Part shown: positions 28,709 to 50,842 of the stretch, one piece after another
Position numbering within the stretch: position 1 is the first letter of the stretch
How the letters are laid out: each line of letters starts with the position of its first letter
From: Bacillota bacterium
GTDB taxonomy: Bacteria > Bacillota > Sulfobacillia > JAJZYS01 > JAJYTV01
NCBI GenBank assembly: GCA_021847575.1
Contig: JAJZQO010000002.1
Location: 22,829-86,828 of the forward strand
Direction: 5' to 3'
DNA length: 64,000 nucleotides
Notes under the pieces: model-generated
What the model saw: only the letters and a program-made list of their open reading frames with translations
Database searches by the model: none
What the model was told of the DNA's origin: nothing
Translations under genes and position numbers: made by a program

Positions 28709-28786
28709 CGGGGAGTGGCGCAGTTTGGCTAGCGCGCTGCGTTCGGGACGCAGAGGTCGCAGGTTCAAATCCTGTCTCCCCGACCA
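28709..28786 (+). tRNA. tRNA-Pro (anticodon CGG), CCA-encoded
   Basis: Manual cloverleaf: acceptor CGGGGAG/CTCCCCG, D-stem GCGC/GCGC, anticodon stem CTGCG/CGCAG with loop TTCGGGA (U33, anticodon CGG, G37), 5-nt variable loop, T-arm GCAGG-TTCAAAT-CCTGT, discriminator A, then CCA. Confidence 0.8.
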
Positions 28787-42761: not shown

Positions 42762-43688
42762 CTACTCCGCCTCCGCGTGCAGCGCCCGCGCCGCCCGCAC
42801 CGGATCCAGCCGGCGTTCGGCCACCGCCGCCAGTACCTCCTGCCAGTTGCCCTCGGCCTTGCTCCTCGCGACCACGCGCTGCACCAACTGGTCCGCCAGC
42901 GCGTCGCGCACCAGGCGTTCGGCCTCCTGCACTCTTCTCGCCGACTGCTCGGGGTCCGAAAGGCGCACCTCCGAATGCCTGAGGATCGCGTCTGCGATCT
43001 CGGCGATGCCGATATCCTGCTGGGCCTGGGCCGCCAACACGGGTGGCTGCCATGTGCGCGCGGGACCCATGTGCAGCATCTGGCGCAGCTCCCGCATCGT
43101 CTGGTCCGCGCCGGGGCGGTCGGACTTGTTGACGACGAAGATGTCGCCGATCTCGAGAATGCCCGCCTTGAAGGCCTGAACGTCGTCGCCCAGCCCCGGC
43201 ACGACGACGACGATGGTGGTGTCGGCGAAGCCCATGACGTCCACTTCGCTCTGGCCGGCACCGACCGTCTCGAGCAGGATCAGGTCCTTGCCGAACGCCT
43301 GCAGCAGTTGGATCGCGCGCGGCGTCGCGCGCGCAAGGCCGCCGAGATGACCCCTCGAGGCAAGCGAGCGCATGAAGACTTCGCTGCCACGGCCCTCCAT
43401 GCGTACCCGGTCACCGAGCAGCGCGCCGCCTGTGAAGGGTGACGACGGGTCGACCGCCAGGATGCCAACCTTGCGGCCACGCGCGAGAAACTGGCCCGCG
43501 AGCTTGTCTACAAGCGTGGACTTGCCTACGCCAGGCGCGCCGGTGACACCGACCACAATGCCGTGTCCGGTATGGGGGTAAACCTCCGCGATGATTTCGT
43601 CCGCCGCCCGCGGCTCGCTTTCCACCAGCGTCAGGGCGCGTGCCAGTGCGCGCCGGTCACCCGCCAGGATGGACTTGCCCATGCTCAT
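42762..43688 (-). CDS. meaB: Methylmalonyl-CoA mutase-associated GTPase MeaB (ArgK family)
   Basis: Internal start [18 protein letters not shown]... P-loop [12 protein letters not shown] and NKxD-like VVNKSD. ATGA overlap with the upstream B12-subunit stop. Confidence 0.8.
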
Positions 43689-44107
43689 GCCCGCTTTACG
43701 CACTCCCGGGTGAAGCGAACGATCTCGTCGGTTTCCGTGCCGGGTCCGAACACGGCCCTGACGCCCAGCTTGCGCAGCGCTTCGGCGTCCTCCTCCGGAA
43801 TGATGCCGCCTACGACGACCTTGACGTCGTCCATGTGCTGCAGGCGCAGGAGGTCGACCACCGCTGGCACCAGCGTCAGGTGGGCTCCAGACAGGATCGA
43901 GAGTCCCACCACGTCGACATCTTCCTGGAGGGCCGCCTCGACGATCTCCTCCGGCGTCTGGTGCAGACCTGTGTAGATGACCTCCATGCCTGCATCGCGC
44001 AGGGCCCGCGCGACAACCTTGGCCCCGCGGTCGTGTCCGTCCAGTCCCGGCTTGCCGATCAGAACGCGAATCGGCCGGGTGCCCTCCCTGTCCTCTGTAG
44101 CGGTCAA
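43685..44107 (-). CDS. Methylmalonyl-CoA mutase small subunit, B12-binding domain protein
   Basis: 140 aa. B12-binding DxHxxG motif ([12 protein letters not shown]). Confidence 0.8.
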
Positions 44108-44745
44108 ACCACTGCCGCCTCCCGATTGCTTCCGAATACCGCCCGCACGGCGCGGACGAACCCAGCCTCTGTCGCATGTGCCCCGCTCGCGTCAAGCATT
44201 GGCGGCATCATGCCGCTACGCGATCCCGCAGGTTGGTGCACACCCTCGAGCGCGAGGTCTGCTGCCGACCGGTCGCGTTCGGTGCGGAACCCTCGCCGCG
44301 CGCCGCGGGCGCCCGCCGACTTGCGTGGGGATGAGTCTTGGGGCCGGAGTTGACCATGAAACTGGAGCGTTCGCCGAGCAGGTTGCCTTGGACAGGCGCT
44401 CCATGTCCCGCAATGGCTCGATGGCCACGCCTTCTCGGAGCCCTCGCCAAGCCTCTTTGCGTCGTCGGAGTCGCAGCCCATCAACCCAGGCATGTCAAAC
44501 GCGGTGGATCGACCGGTCCGACCCCGTCGGAGCAAATAATAGTAGAAGCGTTCGTTCGTCTCCATGGCCCCGCGACCTGTCGCAATTGTCCACGGGCGCT
44601 CGCGGTACATGCCCGGGTGGATTCCTCGGGTATACGGATACTGGCCGGGTTCACCAATGTCGCGCACCGGGTGCGCGGTCTGGCCATCCGCCCGATAGAC
44701 GGGCTGGACGTCGAGGCCCGACGGTGTTTTGCGCTCGTTGGCCAT
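44108..44745 (-). pseudogene. Remnant of the methylmalonyl-CoA mutase catalytic (large) subunit: about 105 N-terminal codons, then a frameshift and truncation
   Basis: PGQYPYTRGIHPGMYRERPWTIATGRGAMETNERFYYYLLRRGRTGRSTAFDMPGLMGCDSDD closely matches the MCM N-terminus. Similarity continues briefly in another frame (AIEPLRDMERLS) and then disappears. Only ~640 nt is available where ~1.6 kb is needed. Confidence 0.6.
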
Positions 44746-44916: not shown

Positions 44917-46293
44917 TTGCAGCTGTCTCCGGAGCTCTTTCGGCAGTACGACATCCGCGGCCATGTCGGCGCGGACCTGACGCCCGAAGTGGCACACCAG
45001 ATCGCGCTCGGCACCGCCGCCTACTGGCTGCAGCACGGGCAAGCCACCGCCATCGTCGGGCGCGACTGCCGCCTGTCGTCCCCGGAGCTCGCCGAGGCGT
45101 TTGTGGACGGGCTCTTGGACGGCGGGATGGAGCGCATCGTCGATCTCGGCATGGTACCGACGCCGTTCGTCTATTTTGCGCGGCACAACCTCGGGATCGG
45201 TCCCGCCGCGATGATCACAGGCTCGCACAATCCGCCGCAGATGAACGGCTTCAAGCTCGCGCTCGGTCCCGGAACGCTGTATGGCGCGGAGATCCAGGAG
45301 GTGCAGGAATGCTGCCGCACGGCGAGCGCCGGGCGCAGGGTGGGCCGCGTCGCGCCCTACGACATCTTTCCGGCCTACCGCAGACGCATGAAGGAACTCT
45401 TCCCCGAAGGGCTGGGCGGCCTGGAGGTGGTCGCGGACGCCGGAAACGGAGCCGGCGGCCCCTACGCGCCGACGGTGCTCGAAGACCTCGGGCTCGAAGT
45501 GCATCCCCTGTTCTGCGAGCCTGACGGTCACTTCCCCAACCACCACCCGGACCCGCTTCAGCCGAAGAACATGGCGGCGCTCCAGGCCGAGGTCGCCCAA
45601 CGGCATGCCCAGCTGGGCTTCGCCTTCGACGGCGACATGGATCGGGTAGGCGCGGTGGACAGCGGCGGCCAGATCATGGCCGTGGATGAGCTGCTGATTC
45701 TCTACTGGCGCGACATCTATCCGCGCTATCCCGACAAGCCGACCCTCGTCGAGGTGAAGTGCTCGCAGCGCCTGTTCGACGATCTCACGCGCATGGGCGC
45801 GCACCCCAGGTTCACCCCGACCGGACACTCTCTCATCAAGGCCGCCATGCGCGAAGTCGGGGCGGTCTTCGCGGGCGAACTCTCGGGACACATCTTCTTC
45901 GCCGACCGCTTCACGGGCGACGACGACGCGCTCTACGCGGCGCTGCGGCTCGCCGAGATCCGCGCGCGCAGCGGCCGCACACTTGCGGACCTGCTCTCGG
46001 ACCTGCCCCCCGCGTTCGCGACGCCGGAGACGCGTGTCGCCTGCCCAGAATCGGCCAAGGCTTCGGTGACGCAGTCCGTGCAGGCCTCCTTCGCAGGCCG
46101 ATTCCCGCTTGTCACCGTCGACGGAGTGCGGGTGATCTTCGACAGGGCATGGGCCCTCCTGAGGCCGTCGAACACGGAGCCGGCTCTCGTGCTGCGCGCC
46201 GAAGGCGAGACGGAGGCCGCGCTCGCATTCGCGAAGTCCCAGATGGAGCAGGCGCTGCTTTCGCATCCCGAAGTATCGCGTCCCGCCTGGTAG
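44917..46293 (+). CDS. Phosphomannomutase/phosphoglucomutase (alpha-D-phosphohexomutase)
   Basis: 458 aa. Active-site TGSHNP, metal loop FDGDMDR, sugar-binding GELSGH. TTG start. Confidence 0.85.
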   Translation: MQLSPELFRQYDIRGHVGADLTPEVAHQIALGTAAYWLQHGQATAIVGRDCRLSSPELAEAFVDGLLDGGMERIVDLGMVPTPFVYFARHNLGIGPAAMITGSHNPPQMNGFKLALGPGTLYGAEIQEVQECCRTASAGRRVGRVAPYDIFPAYRRRMKELFPEGLGGLEVVADAGNGAGGPYAPTVLEDLGLEVHPLFCEPDGHFPNHHPDPLQPKNMAALQAEVAQRHAQLGFAFDGDMDRVGAVDSGGQIMAVDELLILYWRDIYPRYPDKPTLVEVKCSQRLFDDLTRMGAHPRFTPTGHSLIKAAMREVGAVFAGELSGHIFFADRFTGDDDALYAALRLAEIRARSGRTLADLLSDLPPAFATPETRVACPESAKASVTQSVQASFAGRFPLVTVDGVRVIFDRAWALLRPSNTEPALVLRAEGETEAALAFAKSQMEQALLSHPEVSRPAW

Positions 46294-46417
46294 GCTTCGT
46301 GACGTCTTTACTCCCTCAGGCGCCCTGTCCACCTGCGTGCGAGCGAGCCTGACGGACATCGGACGAAAGCGTGGTATCCTTTTCGACGCCTTTGCCTTAA
46401 ATCGGCCAGCAGGTGTT

Positions 46418-46445
46418 GCATTCGCCCGCCTTGGTGGTATATTGG
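46418..46445 (+). promoter_or_regulatory. Sigma-A promoter (-35 TTGCAT, 16-nt spacer, -10 TATATT) driving the M-box leader
   Basis: -35 at 46418..46423 and -10 at 46440..46445, immediately upstream of the riboswitch aptamer. Confidence 0.6.
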
Positions 46446-46454
46446 TTGTGGATC

Positions 46455-46640
46455 GTCTGTTAGGTGAGGCTACCCGCGAGAGATAGGCTCTTGCCCGGAA
46501 ACATCGAGAGATGCCCACGGGTGAAACAGTCCCGGTCGATACAAGGCCGGAACCAGAGAGCTGGAGCGAAGCTCCTATGCCGCGCGGTGCTGAAGCTCAA
46601 CGAGAAGACGCCAGTTTTTCCTGGGCGTGTTCTCACGCCC
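46455..46640 (+). ncRNA. M-box (ykoK-type) Mg2+-sensing riboswitch with an intrinsic terminator expression platform
   Basis: Contains the hallmark M-box segments GUUAGGUGAGGCU and CCUAUGCC...GUGCUGAAGCUCAACGA. A terminator CCTGGGCGTG-TTCT-CACGCCCAGG plus T6 lies at 46610..46639. Sits upstream of an NRAMP transporter. Confidence 0.75.
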
Positions 46641-46837
46641 AGGTTTTTTGGTGAAAGGGGGGATCAGGCCGTGGCCGCTGACGATCATAGTAGACCCAGG
46701 CTTCGGGACGCTGGACAGGGTTCCGGGCAGGCGGCGGTTGCGGCCTGTCCCGTGGTGCGCGCCTTCTAGCCGCGCCAGGTCTCTCCCTGCACGCTCCCGA
46801 CGCCACCGACAACCGGTCGCGGAAGGAGGCGTGACGC

Positions 46838-48190
46838 ATGGCTTCGGCCAAGATGGACAATGAGCTTGAGTTGCCGCGGGACGTGCGTCAGCGCGCCGAG
46901 GACCGGCTTGCGCTCCAGTACGCGCGGCAGGATCGCGGCCTGTGGGCGAGCCTGCGGATGCTCGGGCTGCTGATCGGGCCGGGGATCCTCGTCATGATTG
47001 CAGACAACGATGCCGGCGGCGTCATCACGTACGCGCAAACCGGCGCCAGTTACGGCCTCGGCTTCTTCATCCCGTTTCTCGTGGTGATGATCCCGGTCGC
47101 CTTCGTCGTCCAGGAGATGACCGTGCGCCTCGGCGCCGTGACGCGCCGTGGCCACGCAGAACTGATCTTCATGCGCTACGGGCGCTTCTGGGGTACCTTC
47201 TCCGCCATCGATCTCGTCATCGCCAACACCCTCACGCTCGTGACGGAGTTCATCGGCATCGCAGCGGGTCTCGCCATCTTCCGCGTACCGATCGGCCTGT
47301 CGGTCGTGCTGGGACTGGCCGCCGTCTGGGCTGTCACGCTGATCGGGCGCTATCGGCTTTGGGAGCGCATTTCCCTCTGGGTCGCGCTGCTCAATGTCGT
47401 GTTCGTGCCACTTGCCCTGGCCGCCCATCCCGACTTCGCCGCCGTGGCAAGCAGCTTCCTCACGTGGCACATCCGCGGCGGGGCCTCAGGGCCATTCCTC
47501 ATGCTGCTCCTGGCGAACCTCGGCACCACGATCGCGCCCTGGATGCTGTTCTTCCAGCAGTCCGCCGTCGTCGACAAGGGCCTCACCCCACGCGATGTGC
47601 GCTTCGGCCGCGTGGACACTTTGATCGGCAGCGTCGTGATGGGCGTGGTGGCCATCGCGCTCGTCATCCTCGCCGCCACCGTGCTGCACGCCGTCCCAGG
47701 AGCAAGCGGGCTCGAGATCCGCTCCATCCTGAGTTCCGTCGGCAGGCATGTCGGCAGCTGGGCGGAGTCGCTGTTCGCCCTGGGTCTGATTGAGTCCGGC
47801 CTGATTGCAGCCATGGCCATCACCGCGAGCACCTCGTGGGCCGCCGGTGAGGCCCTCGGCCTGAAGGTCCGCAGCCTGAACGCCGGACTCAGGCAGGCGC
47901 TTCCCTTCTACCTGCCGGGCCTGATCGCCGTCACCCTGGCCGCCTGCGTCGTCCTTATCCCCGGTGCGCCGCTCGGTTACCTCAACGTCCTCGTGCAAGT
48001 GCTCGCCACCGTGTTCATGCCCGCGGCGCTGCTGTTCCTCCTGCTCCTCGTCAACGACCGCGAAGTGATGGGCCGACACGTCAACAGCCGCCTGCAGAAC
48101 GTGACGGCGATCGGCATCGTCGCACTCCTCGTCCTCATGAACGGCCTCTACGGCCTCTCGGTCGTGCTGCCTTCCCTCTTCCCGCACTGA
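46838..48190 (+). CDS. NRAMP-family divalent cation transporter (MntH-like; possibly the Mg2+-transporting NrmT subtype)
   Basis: 450 aa, 11-12 TM. NRAMP motif IGPGILVMIADNDAGGVITYAQTGASYG. GGAAGGAGG RBS. Confidence 0.8.
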   Translation: MASAKMDNELELPRDVRQRAEDRLALQYARQDRGLWASLRMLGLLIGPGILVMIADNDAGGVITYAQTGASYGLGFFIPFLVVMIPVAFVVQEMTVRLGAVTRRGHAELIFMRYGRFWGTFSAIDLVIANTLTLVTEFIGIAAGLAIFRVPIGLSVVLGLAAVWAVTLIGRYRLWERISLWVALLNVVFVPLALAAHPDFAAVASSFLTWHIRGGASGPFLMLLLANLGTTIAPWMLFFQQSAVVDKGLTPRDVRFGRVDTLIGSVVMGVVAIALVILAATVLHAVPGASGLEIRSILSSVGRHVGSWAESLFALGLIESGLIAAMAITASTSWAAGEALGLKVRSLNAGLRQALPFYLPGLIAVTLAACVVLIPGAPLGYLNVLVQVLATVFMPAALLFLLLLVNDREVMGRHVNSRLQNVTAIGIVALLVLMNGLYGLSVVLPSLFPH

Positions 48191-48208
48191 TCTCGTTGAA
48201 AGGAGTCG

Positions 48209-48409
48209 ATGCACATGGCCCGCACGCTCAGCTACGACCAGGACGCGATCTGGAATGTCGTGCGCGAGGAATCACTCCTGCAGGAGCCACCCGTCTTCCA
48301 CCGCGTCGACGTCCGCGGCCCTGTGGCGGTGGTCTGGTGGGGTCTTCGCATCTACGTCGTGCTGATGGCCGCACTGGTTGTCACCGGCTTTTTGCACGGT
48401 CTGCGCTAG
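48209..48409 (+). CDS. Small membrane protein (66 aa), hypothetical, co-transcribed with the NRAMP gene
   Basis: AGGAG RBS. One predicted TM helix (VAVVWWGLRIYVVLMAALVVTGFL). Starts 18 nt after the NRAMP stop. Confidence 0.4.
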   Translation: MHMARTLSYDQDAIWNVVREESLLQEPPVFHRVDVRGPVAVVWWGLRIYVVLMAALVVTGFLHGLR

Positions 48410-48427: not shown

Positions 48428-48461
48428 GACAGCGGCGGGGGGACCTGCCGCTGTCTATGTT
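48428..48461. terminator. Bidirectional intrinsic terminator hairpin (GACAGCGGC-N10-GCCGCTGTC)
   Basis: 9-bp perfect stem between the convergent small ORF (+) and lysR (-), followed by a T-rich stretch. Confidence 0.5.
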
Positions 48462-49351
48462 TAAGTGAGCTCATCGTGCAGTGCCTGCCAGAGTGCCTCC
48501 TCGACCGGAAGGCGCCGGCGGCTGAGTCCCCTGTACGTGTAGACCCTGCGCGGCCCGCCGAGGTCCGGACAGGTCGCGGCCGCGAGGCGGCCGGCCTCCA
48601 CCTCCCACGCGACCGAAAGCCGGGAAAGCACCGCAACGCCGAGCCCCGCCGCGACCGCCCGCTTCACCGCCTCGTTCGAGGCGAGCTCCATCACCGGCCG
48701 CGGCTCATGGCCGAGCGCCCTCTGCAGCACGACCCGGGTGTGCGACTCGCTCTCCCGCAGGACGAGGGGCGCCGCCGCGAGCTCCGCGATCGTCCAGTCG
48801 CGATTTCTGCGGGGATCGCCCGCGGACAGGACGATGCTCAGCTCTTCCGTGCCCAAAGTGTCGATCTCGAACCCGCCTTGCCAAGGCGGCGTGTCGAGCG
48901 CCCCCATGGCGACGGCGACGTCGATCGCTCCACTCTCCAGAAGCTCGCGCAGCGCCGCGGGATTCTCCACGCTCAGCGTGATCTGGACATCGGGATGCCG
49001 GCGCACGAACGGTGCAAGACGGTAGGGCAGAAGGTAACTGGAGGGCGTTGCGCTGGCCCCGATGCGCACCCGCCCGCCGCCACCGCGCATGGTCTCCATG
49101 GCGCGGTCCAGGGCCTCGACGCCTCTGAGCACACGGTCGACATGGCGAAGCAGCTCGTCCCCGGCGGCGGTAAGCTGGATCCGCCTGTGGACCACCTCGA
49201 CGAGCGGCACGCCGAGTTCCTGCTCGAGGGCACGCACCTGCATGCTGATCGCCGGCTGGCTCCGCCCGAGCACTGCGGCCGCGGCTGTGAACGTCCGGGA
49301 CTGCGCCACCACCTGGAACACCTTCAGCTGGCCGAGCTGCAATCTCCTCAC
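48461..49351 (-). CDS. LysR-family transcriptional regulator
   Basis: 296 aa. N-terminal HTH (LKVFQVVAQSRTFTAAAAVLGRSQPAISMQVRALE) plus a LysR substrate-binding domain. GTG start. Confidence 0.85.
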   Translation of the reverse strand: MRRLQLGQLKVFQVVAQSRTFTAAAAVLGRSQPAISMQVRALEQELGVPLVEVVHRRIQLTAAGDELLRHVDRVLRGVEALDRAMETMRGGGGRVRIGASATPSSYLLPYRLAPFVRRHPDVQITLSVENPAALRELLESGAIDVAVAMGALDTPPWQGGFEIDTLGTEELSIVLSAGDPRRNRDWTIAELAAAPLVLRESESHTRVVLQRALGHEPRPVMELASNEAVKRAVAAGLGVAVLSRLSVAWEVEAGRLAAATCPDLGGPRRVYTYRGLSRRRLPVEEALWQALHDELT

Positions 49352-49429: not shown

Positions 49430-50842
49430 ATGCAAAACGACAGGGCAGGACTCGAGACGGGTCTGGCGGAACATCCCTGGCTCGCAGTCGCCACGGTCTG
49501 CCTGGGCGCCGCGATGGCGGCGATCGACGCCAGCATCGTCAACGTGGGCCTGCCCACCATGCAGCACTTCTTCCATACGACCGTCAGCAATGTCGCTTGG
49601 GTGTCGCTCACCTACCTGCTCATCCTCACGACCGTCGTCGTTCTCGCCGGCCGCCTGGCGGACGGTATCGGGCGCTCGCGCATGTACCGCGCGGGCTTTC
49701 TCGTGTTCGGCGTCGCCTCGGCGGGCTGCGGCTTTGCGCCCAGCCTTGGCGTGCTGCTGATCTCCCGCCTGGTCCAGGGCGTGGGCGCGGCGATGCTGCA
49801 GGCGAACTCTGTCGCGATCGTGACGTCGAGCGTTCCCGCGTCGATGCGCGGCCGGGCGATCGGCGTGCAGGGCGCCGCCCAGGCCGTCGGACTCGCTATC
49901 GGACCCGCCATCGGCGGATTCCTCCTTGCGGCCTTTTCCTGGCGCGCCATATTCCTCGTCAACCTGCCGATCGCAGCCCTCGCGCTGATCGTCGGACCGT
50001 ACACCCTGCCGAAGGATCCCGCTAAGCGCACGATGCCGCACGTGGACCCGCTCTCGTCCGTGCTCATGGCCCTCGTGCTCGTGCTCGCGCTCGCCAGCCT
50101 CAACCCCTCGCTGCCTGGCCATCAGTTCTGGTACGCGGAGCTGTTGGCCGCGGTCGTGCTCGGCTACATCTTCGCGCGACGACAGGGGCTCGTGCCGACA
50201 CCGCTGATCGAACCCGAACTCGTCAAGATCCTCAACGTTACGGGCGGGGTCGTGCTGGGCGTTCTCTCGTTCAGCGTCCTCTACGGCGTCATCTTCCTGA
50301 CGCCATACTACCTGCAGGAGGTGCGCCACCTGCCGGCCGCCCGCATGGGCCTCCTGCTCACGGCGATCGCGCTCGCGATGACGGCCGTCGCGCCGTTCGC
50401 CGGAACTTTCGCGGATCGCTTCGGCAACCGCAAGGTGGCCGTGGGCGGCCTGCTCATCCTCACCGCGGGCAGCGTGGCAATCTTCGCGTGGACACCCCTG
50501 ACGAACTTCGCCTGGACGGTTCCTGCGATGGCCTTGATCGGCGCGGGCGCAGGGGTCTTCACGCCGCCCAACAACAGTTCCGTCATGGGTAGCGCGCCGC
50601 CGCATCACCTTGGTGTGACAGGCGGCCTGCTCAACATGGGCCGCTCGATCGGCATGAGCCTTGGACAGGCGCTGGTCGCTAGCCTGTTCGAGCTCGGCTC
50701 CATGCACGGCAGCTACTTCAACGGCTTCCGCGAAGCCATGATACTGGTCCTCGTGATCGCCATCGTGGCCCTGGTGCTGCAGTGGTTCATGCCCAAGGAC
50801 AGCGGCACAGCCGGCCACGACATGCCGTTCCTGCCGGATTGA
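49430..50842 (+). CDS. MFS transporter, DHA2 (14-TMS drug:H+ antiporter) family
   Basis: 470 aa, 14 predicted TM. MFS signature G(R/K)xxD(R/K)xGR between TM2 and TM3 (GRLADGIGRSR). Confidence 0.8.
   Translation: MQNDRAGLETGLAEHPWLAVATVCLGAAMAAIDASIVNVGLPTMQHFFHTTVSNVAWVSLTYLLILTTVVVLAGRLADGIGRSRMYRAGFLVFGVASAGCGFAPSLGVLLISRLVQGVGAAMLQANSVAIVTSSVPASMRGRAIGVQGAAQAVGLAIGPAIGGFLLAAFSWRAIFLVNLPIAALALIVGPYTLPKDPAKRTMPHVDPLSSVLMALVLVLALASLNPSLPGHQFWYAELLAAVVLGYIFARRQGLVPTPLIEPELVKILNVTGGVVLGVLSFSVLYGVIFLTPYYLQEVRHLPAARMGLLLTAIALAMTAVAPFAGTFADRFGNRKVAVGGLLILTAGSVAIFAWTPLTNFAWTVPAMALIGAGAGVFTPPNNSSVMGSAPPHHLGVTGGLLNMGRSIGMSLGQALVASLFELGSMHGSYFNGFREAMILVLVIAIVALVLQWFMPKDSGTAGHDMPFLPD

Follow-up and report, generated by a model that had tools for sequence, protein, structure and literature searches.

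Which metal does an NRAMP-family gene import when it is preceded by a candidate M-box, the Mg2+-sensing riboswitch, and how many devices control it? Such a gene lies in the 64,000-nucleotide stretch considered here (the window: GCA_021847575.1, contig JAJZQO010000002.1, positions 22,829-86,828 of the forward strand; all coordinates below are window positions unless a locus is named). An earlier reading by a model that saw only the sequence (the sequence-only reading) had proposed an M-box-controlled transporter of Mg2+, a possible second layer of control between the terminator and the start codon, and a short membrane ORF encoding a possible accessory subunit. Comparative analysis indicates that the locus is very probably a Mg2+-repressed Mg2+-uptake operon. 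It consists of the M-box, an NRAMP-related Mg2+ transporter (NRMT), a small membrane protein that appears to be the partner of the transporter, and an upstream open reading frame (uORF) that may encode a leader peptide. The core of the operon, an M-box-controlled NRMT gene, is a further member of an established type, from a little-studied high-GC lineage of Bacillota with related genomes in acidic and hot habitats. What is new at this locus is a linked, unannotated small membrane protein replacing the MgtE_N partner, and a conserved uORF following the classical M-box terminator. Neither such a small protein nor such a uORF was found described for NRMT genes in the searched literature.

The M-box leader and its distribution

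The leader of the transporter gene matches the M-box family RF00380 along the entire model (positions 1-169 of 169) with 118 bits, the gathering score being 44, and an E-value of 1e-25. The M-box assignment is thus upheld, and both segments quoted in its favour in the sequence-only reading fall into conserved positions of the aptamer. The intrinsic terminator, described there as a 10-bp stem with a U6 tail, begins four bases past the aptamer and is recovered by the terminator scan; on its own it has a folding energy of -20.9 kcal/mol. When it ends at position 46633, the nascent transcript folds as an antiterminator hairpin at -13.3 kcal/mol (RNAfold). The 5' arm of this hairpin is the 3' strand of the aptamer helix P1, and therefore one strand is common to the Mg2+-stabilized aptamer and the antiterminator. 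The P1 3' strand can thus alternatively disrupt the downstream terminator, as in the described off-switch logic of M-boxes, where the aptamer and the antiterminator share a strand (PMC4072509). We infer from these pairings that the antiterminator is functional and that the leader responds to Mg2+.

The promoter proposed directly upstream of the aptamer has the claimed sequence. L001, L002 and the window (the three closest relatives) are identical in both hexamers and in the TG dinucleotide of the extended -10 box, and they diverge in the flanks and in a part of the promoter spacer. The consensus promoter scan did not call this candidate at 46416-46443 because its -35 hexamer matches the consensus in only three of six positions.

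Relatives were collected by scanning one genome per species. This yielded 80 loci with transporter identity of 54-92%, and 81 loci including the window. The closest relatives of the window locus come from uncultured Bacillota (92%, 91% and 76% identity). Cultured genera of Bacillota are represented by Alicyclobacillus, Sulfobacillus, Sulfoacidibacillus and Ferroacidibacillus. The other bacterial loci belong to Acidithiobacillus, Acidiphilium and metagenome-assembled genomes (MAGs) of 'Deltaproteobacteria'; homologues of the small protein in the database carry the label Acidulodesulfobacterium. The archaeal loci come from Thermoplasmata, Micrarchaeota and Marsarchaeota.

A full-length M-box on the same strand was found by Rfam upstream of the orthologous transporter gene in 28 of the 80 loci, all 28 of the Bacillota type; together with the window, this makes 29 M-box loci. 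No M-box was detected by Rfam in the archaeal or Acidithiobacillus loci among the 80. All 29 M-box loci have the same order of elements: aptamer, terminator, spacer of 110-230 nt, Shine-Dalgarno (SD) box and start codon; a terminator equivalent to that of the window follows the aptamer in nearly all of them. Recent horizontal acquisition of the operon was also considered. There is no sign of it, the GC content of the operon being equal to that of its flanks.

The transporter belongs to the NRMT type

The transporter contains the Pfam Nramp domain (PF01566, 219 bits, profile positions 2-357 of 357) and scores well below the MntH cut-offs, with 113 against 430 for the NCBIfam MntH model and 50 against 272 for TIGR01197. 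Its best sequence match in PDB is EleNRMT (7QIA, 186 bits); the match to Deinococcus MntH (DraNramp) has about 70 bits. The AlphaFold model, built from a shallow alignment (pLDDT 68, pTM 0.72), matches structures of the NRAMP family and agrees with the LeuT-type fold. The top Foldseek matches are 7qia and 7qji (E-value 4e-16, TM-score 0.68/0.76), followed by canonical NRAMPs at 4e-11 or weaker.

In transmembrane helix (TM) 1 the metal site reads D58-A59-G60-G61, aligned to NDAGG of EleNRMT (DxxG). In TM6 it reads G229-T230-T231-I232-A233-P234-W235, aligned to GTTIAPW of EleNRMT (TxxA) and invariant across 17 relatives. The other two site residues, E137 in helix 3 and Q387 in helix 10, are conserved as well. 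The methionine of the Mn2+ site is replaced by alanine (A233), and the first histidine of the proton pathway by tryptophan (W235). The canonical motifs DPGN (DxxN) and A/CxxM-P-H are absent from the transporter, which has DAGG and TTIAPW instead. According to Ramanadane et al. (2022, PMC8806188), the DxxG/TxxA signature defines NRMTs, and mutation of the TM6 threonine of EleNRMT, the counterpart of T230, abolishes Mg2+ transport.

The suggestion that this NRAMP gene may encode a Mg2+-transporting variant therefore stands, as the methionine of the Mn2+ site is not retained, and EleNRMT is the closest solved structure both by sequence and by fold. The precedent invoked for it, an M-box-regulated NrmT from Clostridium, is indeed on record (Shin et al. 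2014, PMC4072509), and association with an M-box is a published predictor of the Mg2+ specificity of NrmT proteins (PMC4072509). By its sequence and by analogy with EleNRMT, the transporter most likely imports Mg2+, and probably Mn2+ too, without proton coupling.

A small membrane protein linked to the transporter

The short ORF downstream of the transporter gene is present as reported (48209-48409) and is preceded by AGGAG. Its product, however, is probably 64 and not 66 amino acids long: the second ATG is the start conserved in the relatives, and it lies 9 nt from AGGAG versus 3 nt for the first one. The AlphaFold model contains a single C-terminal TM helix (residues 37-63, pLDDT about 95), in accordance with the single TM segment predicted previously. 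The family shares the core motif (K/R)GW-x3-AFW-x-LR-x-YI; a hydrophobic stretch comes next, ending with GF and zero to three more residues. No significant matches to the small protein were found in Pfam and NCBIfam.

An iterative profile search over 622 candidate frames identified exactly one homologue directly downstream of the transporter gene in each of the 81 loci, from Bacillota to Thermoplasmata. The small gene usually begins 8-35 nt after the transporter stop codon and has its own SD box. The distance matrices of the small proteins and of the transporters are correlated (Mantel r = 0.81, p <= 5e-4), and therefore the two genes have been inherited or transferred together. A word-indexed database search produced 164 clusters of small-protein homologues, nearly all unnamed or annotated as 'hypothetical protein', and an exhaustive HMMER search over 1.84 billion representatives produced 85 clusters, all of 42-98 amino acids and none fused to any other protein. 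The small-protein family and the transporter branch are similarly narrow.

Most NrmT genes have a neighbour encoding a protein similar to the N-terminal domain of MgtE (Shin et al., PMC4072509). In the window no gene with this domain adjoins the transporter gene: upstream there is a phosphogluco/phosphomannomutase gene, and downstream the small ORF and then a LysR-family gene. In contrast, the EleNRMT-type loci of Eggerthellaceae (L081-L084) encode a 450-residue MgtE_N+CBS protein, whose gene (1644-2997 in locus coordinates) precedes the NRMT gene by 4 nt. At its 3' end the NRMT gene adjoins or overlaps a convergent Rrf2 gene. Neither a match to the small-protein profile nor an M-box was found in these four loci. 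It follows that the NRMT branches probably differ in their partners. The role of accessory subunit proposed for the short ORF is favoured by the complete synteny and the co-divergence; these sequence data suggest that the small protein is an obligate partner of the window NRMT branch, replacing the MgtE_N-CBS partner of other branches.

A conserved upstream ORF in the spacer

The spacer between the terminator and the transporter ATG, estimated at about 200 nt in the sequence-only reading, measures about 190 nt and contains a conserved uORF. This uORF is present in all 29 M-box loci. The first base of its start codon is G in 18 loci, A in seven, T in four and C in none, and only ATG, GTG and TTG occur at this position. 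Across the 28 distinct leaders, a nearly invariant GG.GG block precedes the start at a constant distance. In all 19 lineages this frame remains open over 22 codons or more, compared to 10 and none of 19 in the other two frames; the joint shuffle P-value is about 2e-7, which is optimistic, since the lineages that enter the statistics are related. The column entropy over codons 2-9 is 1.48, 1.28 and 1.65 for codon positions 1, 2 and 3, respectively, that is, lowest in the second position and highest in the third.

Across genera only the first ten or so residues are conserved, M-[DSE]-[STA]-[DG]-P-[GS]-[GD]-x-S-R-R. The rest varies both in sequence and in length (22-70 codons), and some Alicyclobacillus-type uORFs overlap the start of the transporter gene. 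Residues 2-8 comprise 38% aspartate, glutamate and proline (D/E/P), 45% small and 15% bulky residues, compared to 13%, 28% and 47% in the remainder (Fisher p of 3e-10 for D/E/P). The N-terminus rich in D/E/P that characterizes leader peptides of the MgtL/MgtQ type is thus found across the uORF family.

Some loci that lack an M-box, archaeal loci among them, have similar uORFs 170-225 nt upstream of the transporter gene. In eight Acidulodesulfobacterium-type loci (L017, L020, L023, L026, L028, L037, L045, L047) the uORF begins with MRSEPDSS. In at least nine loci of Thermoplasmata it follows the pattern x-D-E-P-P-(S/N/G), and several of these uORFs have exactly 26 codons. The uORFs of Thermoplasmata (L009, L010, L012, L015, L021, L025, L031, L038, L062, L063, L071, L077) start with MSDEPPN..., L[KN]DEPP... 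or VDGDDPPG.... In both groups the proline, glutamate and serine codons wobble and the peptide is kept. The loci of Acidithiobacillus and Micrarchaeota lack a uORF, with one exception. This is L030 from an Acidithiobacillus sp. MAG, where a Bacillota-like uORF (LDSDPSCFHK...) is situated 197 nt upstream of the transporter gene and no M-box was detected; a separate acquisition or a binning error is possible.

The existence of the uORF is well supported by these comparisons, and its resemblance to MgtL and MgtQ is real. It is less certain, though suggested by the same patterns and by analogy, that it acts as a regulatory leader peptide adding a translation-level input.

RNA structure of the spacer

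RNAalifold predicts two helices in the spacers of the window group. One is a long-range helix between the SD box and start codon of the uORF and the middle of the spacer; the other pairs the SD region of the transporter gene with an upstream anti-SD strand and is kept in all seven relatives. The same two helices were found independently in the Sulfobacillus-type group. In the window group 91.5% of cells are paired and the covariation is 0.220 against 0.170, with 0.06-0.14 in slid registers; 4-5 of 500 shuffles attain these values of pairing and covariation, and most helix pairs are invariant. In the Sulfobacillus-type group 83.5% of cells are paired, compared to 74.8% in shuffles (reached by none of 500), and the covariation is 0.354 against 0.224, with 0.12-0.20 in slid registers. 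Eleven pairs in this group are changed on both sides. The helix analogous to the uORF-start helix has five pairs of this kind, and the anti-SD hairpin of the group shows compensatory changes. For the Alicyclobacillus-type spacers RNAalifold returned no pairs, the MAFFT alignment being too poor.

Alternative explanations

Several observations weigh against parts of the proposed operon, and they are best considered together with the explanations that build on them. One possibility is that under physiological conditions the transporter mainly carries Mn2+ or another transition metal, its expression being tied by the M-box to the general divalent-cation status. Indeed, EleNRMT carries Mn2+ besides Mg2+ (PMC8806188); the NrmT of Acidobacterium rescued a Mn2+-uptake defect and a Mg2+ defect only poorly (PMC4072509); and relatives of the window transporter are named 'Mn2+/Fe2+ NRAMP family transporter' in databases. 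However, the soft-ligand methionine is replaced by alanine in the window protein, Thr230 offers the additional oxygen ligand that EleNRMT needs for Mg2+, and the score of the M-box is that of a typical Mg2+ aptamer. Besides, the Acidobacterium gene has no M-box, and all M-box-linked NrmT proteins tested so far transported Mg2+ (PMC4072509). The Mn2+-transporter behaviour of this NrmT, whose gene lacks an M-box, is the reason why Shin et al. prefer the riboswitch for predicting Mg2+ specificity. We consider Mn2+ as the main substrate quite improbable. Another possibility is that the small membrane protein is co-transcribed without being a subunit and has a different target, for instance by helping membrane insertion, regulating some other protein or acting as a stress peptide. 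No natural fusion with the transporter was found among 120 transporter homologues and 85 small-protein clusters, the one long homologue (P0043) having an N-terminal extension only, and the soluble N-terminal part of the small protein shows little conservation and has a low-confidence model. On the other hand, in the 81 loci the small protein never occurs apart from this transporter branch and follows it at 8-35 nt; the two co-diverge across two domains of life, and the families are about equally narrow. Thus this explanation is unlikely, and the role of a partner is preferred.

The uORF could also be untranslated, in which case the conserved block would be an RNA element that binds a protein or the ribosome, or a structure controlling the downstream ribosome-binding site. 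The serine codon is always AGT in the M-box loci, including at a GC content of 68%, and the replacement of CATAGTAGAC by CATAGAAGTC alters the peptide; part of the conservation is therefore possibly at the RNA level. Moreover, the region takes part in conserved helices, and the archaeal start codons are uncertain, with GGAGG abutting the putative start and ATT or ATA in three loci. The window uORF itself is the weakest example of the D/E/P pattern: its N-terminus VAADDHSR has only Asp4 and Asp5 in residues 2-8, with proline at position 9. Against a pure RNA element speak the restriction of the start position to ATG, GTG and TTG, the fixed SD spacing, the frame kept open in all lineages and the wobbling codons with a preserved peptide, and no match to an Rfam family rises above noise in the spacer even at E <= 10. 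This alternative is rather unlikely, and translation of the uORF is the better explanation.

The exact mode of action of the uORF is a different matter. By folding alone, the transporter SD box is paired with a probability of about 0.8-1.0, compared to 0.5-0.9 in upstream-shuffled controls (18 of 20 lineages), which is little above the controls. When ribosome footprints were masked along the uORF (ViennaRNA, 20 lineages), accessibility of this SD box was 0.27 in the free leader, 0.27-0.29 with a stalled ribosome and 0.26 with a terminating one. Hence, as far as equilibrium folding goes, an ermC- or mgtQ-like switch gains no support, either by early stalling or by termination coupling.

The particular hairpin in which the sequence-only reading saw a second control layer (GGACAGG/CCTGTCC, placed there at about 46696-46735) does have a 7-bp stem, but it lies further downstream (Table 1). 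It could in principle be a second terminator or a thermometer: the stem can form in 88% of cells in seven relatives, and two of its pairs are changed on both sides. However, 62-110 of 500 shuffles match both the covariation and the pairing, no T-tract follows the hairpin, and its 3' strand is claimed by the alternative uORF-start helix with equal or better support. Furthermore, the hairpin is inside the uORF, and translating ribosomes would melt the stem. A separate device here is very improbable, and this candidate was rejected. What stands of the second layer is the conserved uORF with its flanking helices.

Proposed regulation and its implications

The following scheme is consistent with these data. 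The candidate promoter would drive a leader that opens with the M-box aptamer. At high cytoplasmic Mg2+ the aptamer would compact and hold the P1 3' strand, so that the 10-bp terminator would form and transcription would stop near position 46649. At low Mg2+ the P1 3' strand would pair with the terminator's 5' half, allowing RNA polymerase to read through. The resulting transcript would encode, in this order, the uORF, the NRMT-type transporter of the SLC11 family and the single-TM protein of 64 amino acids. The uORF would most likely act by Mg2+-dependent destabilization of the translating ribosome, as in MgtL and MgtQ, via the helices that may sequester the two ribosome-binding sites.

In both bacteria and archaea the small protein strictly accompanies one NRMT branch. 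This suggests that NRMT branches have specific partners, either this peptide or MgtE_N-CBS proteins, which is relevant to the gating of these uncoupled transporters. If the uORF is functional, ribosome-based sensing of Mg2+, so far worked out in enterobacteria, would be far more widespread and could be layered on a riboswitch. A broader and more doubtful possibility is a three-part module, in which the transporter is joined by the D/E/P-rich leader peptide and by an obligate subunit with one helix, and which has moved among Bacillota, Acidulodesulfobacterium-like bacteria and Thermoplasmata, the leader peptide being a ribosome-based sensor of cytoplasmic Mg2+ similar to MgtL and MgtQ. If this were the case, Bacillota would stack two independent Mg2+ sensors in one leader, the aptamer for transcription and the ribosome for translation, and transporters of the SLC11 family would have, in the small protein, their first known accessory subunit. 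Archaea would then have leader-peptide-based Mg2+ control, of which we know no description.

Features of the locus and neighbouring genes

Table 1. Candidate regulatory elements and genes of the NRMT operon (window coordinates).
Feature	Position	Strand	Details
Candidate sigma-A promoter	46416..46443	+	-35 TTGCAT 46416-46421, 16-nt spacer, TG 46435-46436, -10 TATATT 46438-46443 (extended -10)
M-box (Mg2+) riboswitch aptamer	46449..46615	+	cmscan, Rfam 15, RF00380
Antiterminator alternative	46603..46633	+	P1 3' strand 46603-46614 pairs with terminator 5' half and loop 46621-46633
Intrinsic terminator	46620..46649	+	stem-loop 46620-46643, 10 bp (8 GC), 4-nt loop, then TTTTTT; terminator scan
uORF Shine-Dalgarno-like GGGGGG	46657..46662	+	8 nt before GTG
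Long-range helix, uORF SD and start codon with mid-spacer	46658-46673 with 46740-46753	+	RNAalifold, window group
Conserved uORF (candidate leader peptide)	46671..46769	+	GTG start, 32 codons and stop, VAADDHSRPRLRDAGQGSGQAAVAACPVVRAF
7-bp hairpin GGACAGG/CCTGTCC	46713-46719 with 46744-46750	+	inside uORF
Anti-SD helix	46792-46798 with 46825-46831	+	CGCTCCC with GGAGGCG of the transporter SD region; RNAalifold
NRMT-type transporter gene	46838..48190	+	450 aa; Pfam Nramp; GGAGG 8 nt before ATG
Small membrane protein gene	48215..48409	+	64 aa from ATG 48215 (66 aa from ATG 48209); AGGAG 48201-48205
Terminator-like hairpin ending the operon	48428..48455	+	12-bp stem; terminator scan; between small ORF and convergent LysR gene

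The LysR-family gene (48461-49351, minus strand) converges on the small ORF across the shared hairpin at 48428-48455, and is divergent from a gene for an efflux permease of the DHA2/EmrB type from the major facilitator superfamily (49430-50842, plus strand). The upstream neighbour (44917-46293, plus strand), called a phosphomannomutase in the sequence-only reading, encodes all four PGM/PMM domains, and this name holds only at the family level, as the protein is below every NCBIfam equivalog cut-off, the best being PgmG with 401 against 600. Further upstream, the products of 42762-44195 and 43685-44107 (both on the minus strand) resemble, from motifs alone, a MeaB/ArgK-type GTPase and a B12-binding domain of the methylmalonyl-CoA mutase type.

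The only other Rfam match in the window is a tRNA gene (28709-28783, plus strand, 64 bits). RNA elements near the orthologous operons are a ZTP riboswitch, a SAM riboswitch, tRNA-Sec and a fragment of a group II intron (L018 385-466, L080 5951-6061, L042 2265-2355 and L063 497-570, respectively, all on the minus strand and in locus coordinates).

Comparison with known systems

The closest described systems are Ca_c0685 and Ca_c3329 of Clostridium acetobutylicum, where an M-box and an intrinsic terminator precede a transporter of the NrmT/NRMT clade, and Mg2+-repressed expression is expected in the window by this likeness (Shin et al. 2014, PMC4072509). The clostridial operons carry a homologue of the MgtE N-terminal domain; the window operon does not, and has the 64-residue protein and the uORF instead. 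M-box-linked NrmT genes have been reported mostly in Clostridia and Deltaproteobacteria (PMC4072509), whereas the window branch is found in Bacillota associated with acidophiles and thermophiles.

With EleNRMT of Eggerthella lenta (7QIA, 7QIC, 7QJI, 7QJJ; PMC8806188) the window transporter shares the site signature of Asp, Gly, Thr, Ala and Gln and the loss of the TM6b histidines. However, it is only about 30% identical to EleNRMT in the structural alignment, and the EleNRMT-type loci have the MgtE_N+CBS gene and neither an M-box nor the small protein. Proteins with one TM segment and fewer than 100 amino acids, encoded together with or near a cation transporter, are KdpF with KdpABC, and MgtS and MgtR with MgtA. 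The window protein resembles them in this respect and is unrelated to them in sequence, and to our knowledge none of the three is a partner of an SLC11/NRAMP-family transporter.

The uORF is comparable to the leader peptides MgtL (mgtA) and MgtQ (mgtB), which are likewise encoded by short ORFs before Mg2+ transporter genes and have acidic residues and prolines near the N-terminus. The N-terminal MEPDPT of MgtL aborts translation within six residues; other N-terminal stretches of D/E/P mixed with small residues also abort it, and low Mg2+ enhances the effect (bioRxiv 10.1101/2021.02.02.429294). In the 8-codon mgtQ of Salmonella the Asp and Glu codons are needed to free the mgtB ribosome-binding site from the 3:4 stem (PMC8092293). 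In both cases destabilization of the ribosome at low Mg2+ changes the structure of the leader RNA (bioRxiv 10.1101/2021.02.02.429294, PMC8092293). Unlike these peptides, the window uORF belongs to another phylum, follows an M-box terminator, has 22-70 codons in its family versus 8-17, shows no sequence homology to them and gave a negative folding test.

The combination of an M-box with a uORF has a recent parallel in the pe20 leader of Mycobacterium tuberculosis with its uORF Rv1805A, reported in 2026 (D'Halluin et al., PMC12810186). There, too, the M-box is followed by a conserved small uORF whose N-terminal region, including a proline, is conserved, and SD and anti-SD sequences interplay (PMC12810186). 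However, the mycobacterial switch has a translational platform with Rho-dependent termination and acts on PE/PPE genes, and its peptide is reportedly limited to mycobacteria (PMC12810186), whereas in the window the M-box acts through a classical intrinsic terminator, if its predicted function is correct, and precedes an NRMT gene.

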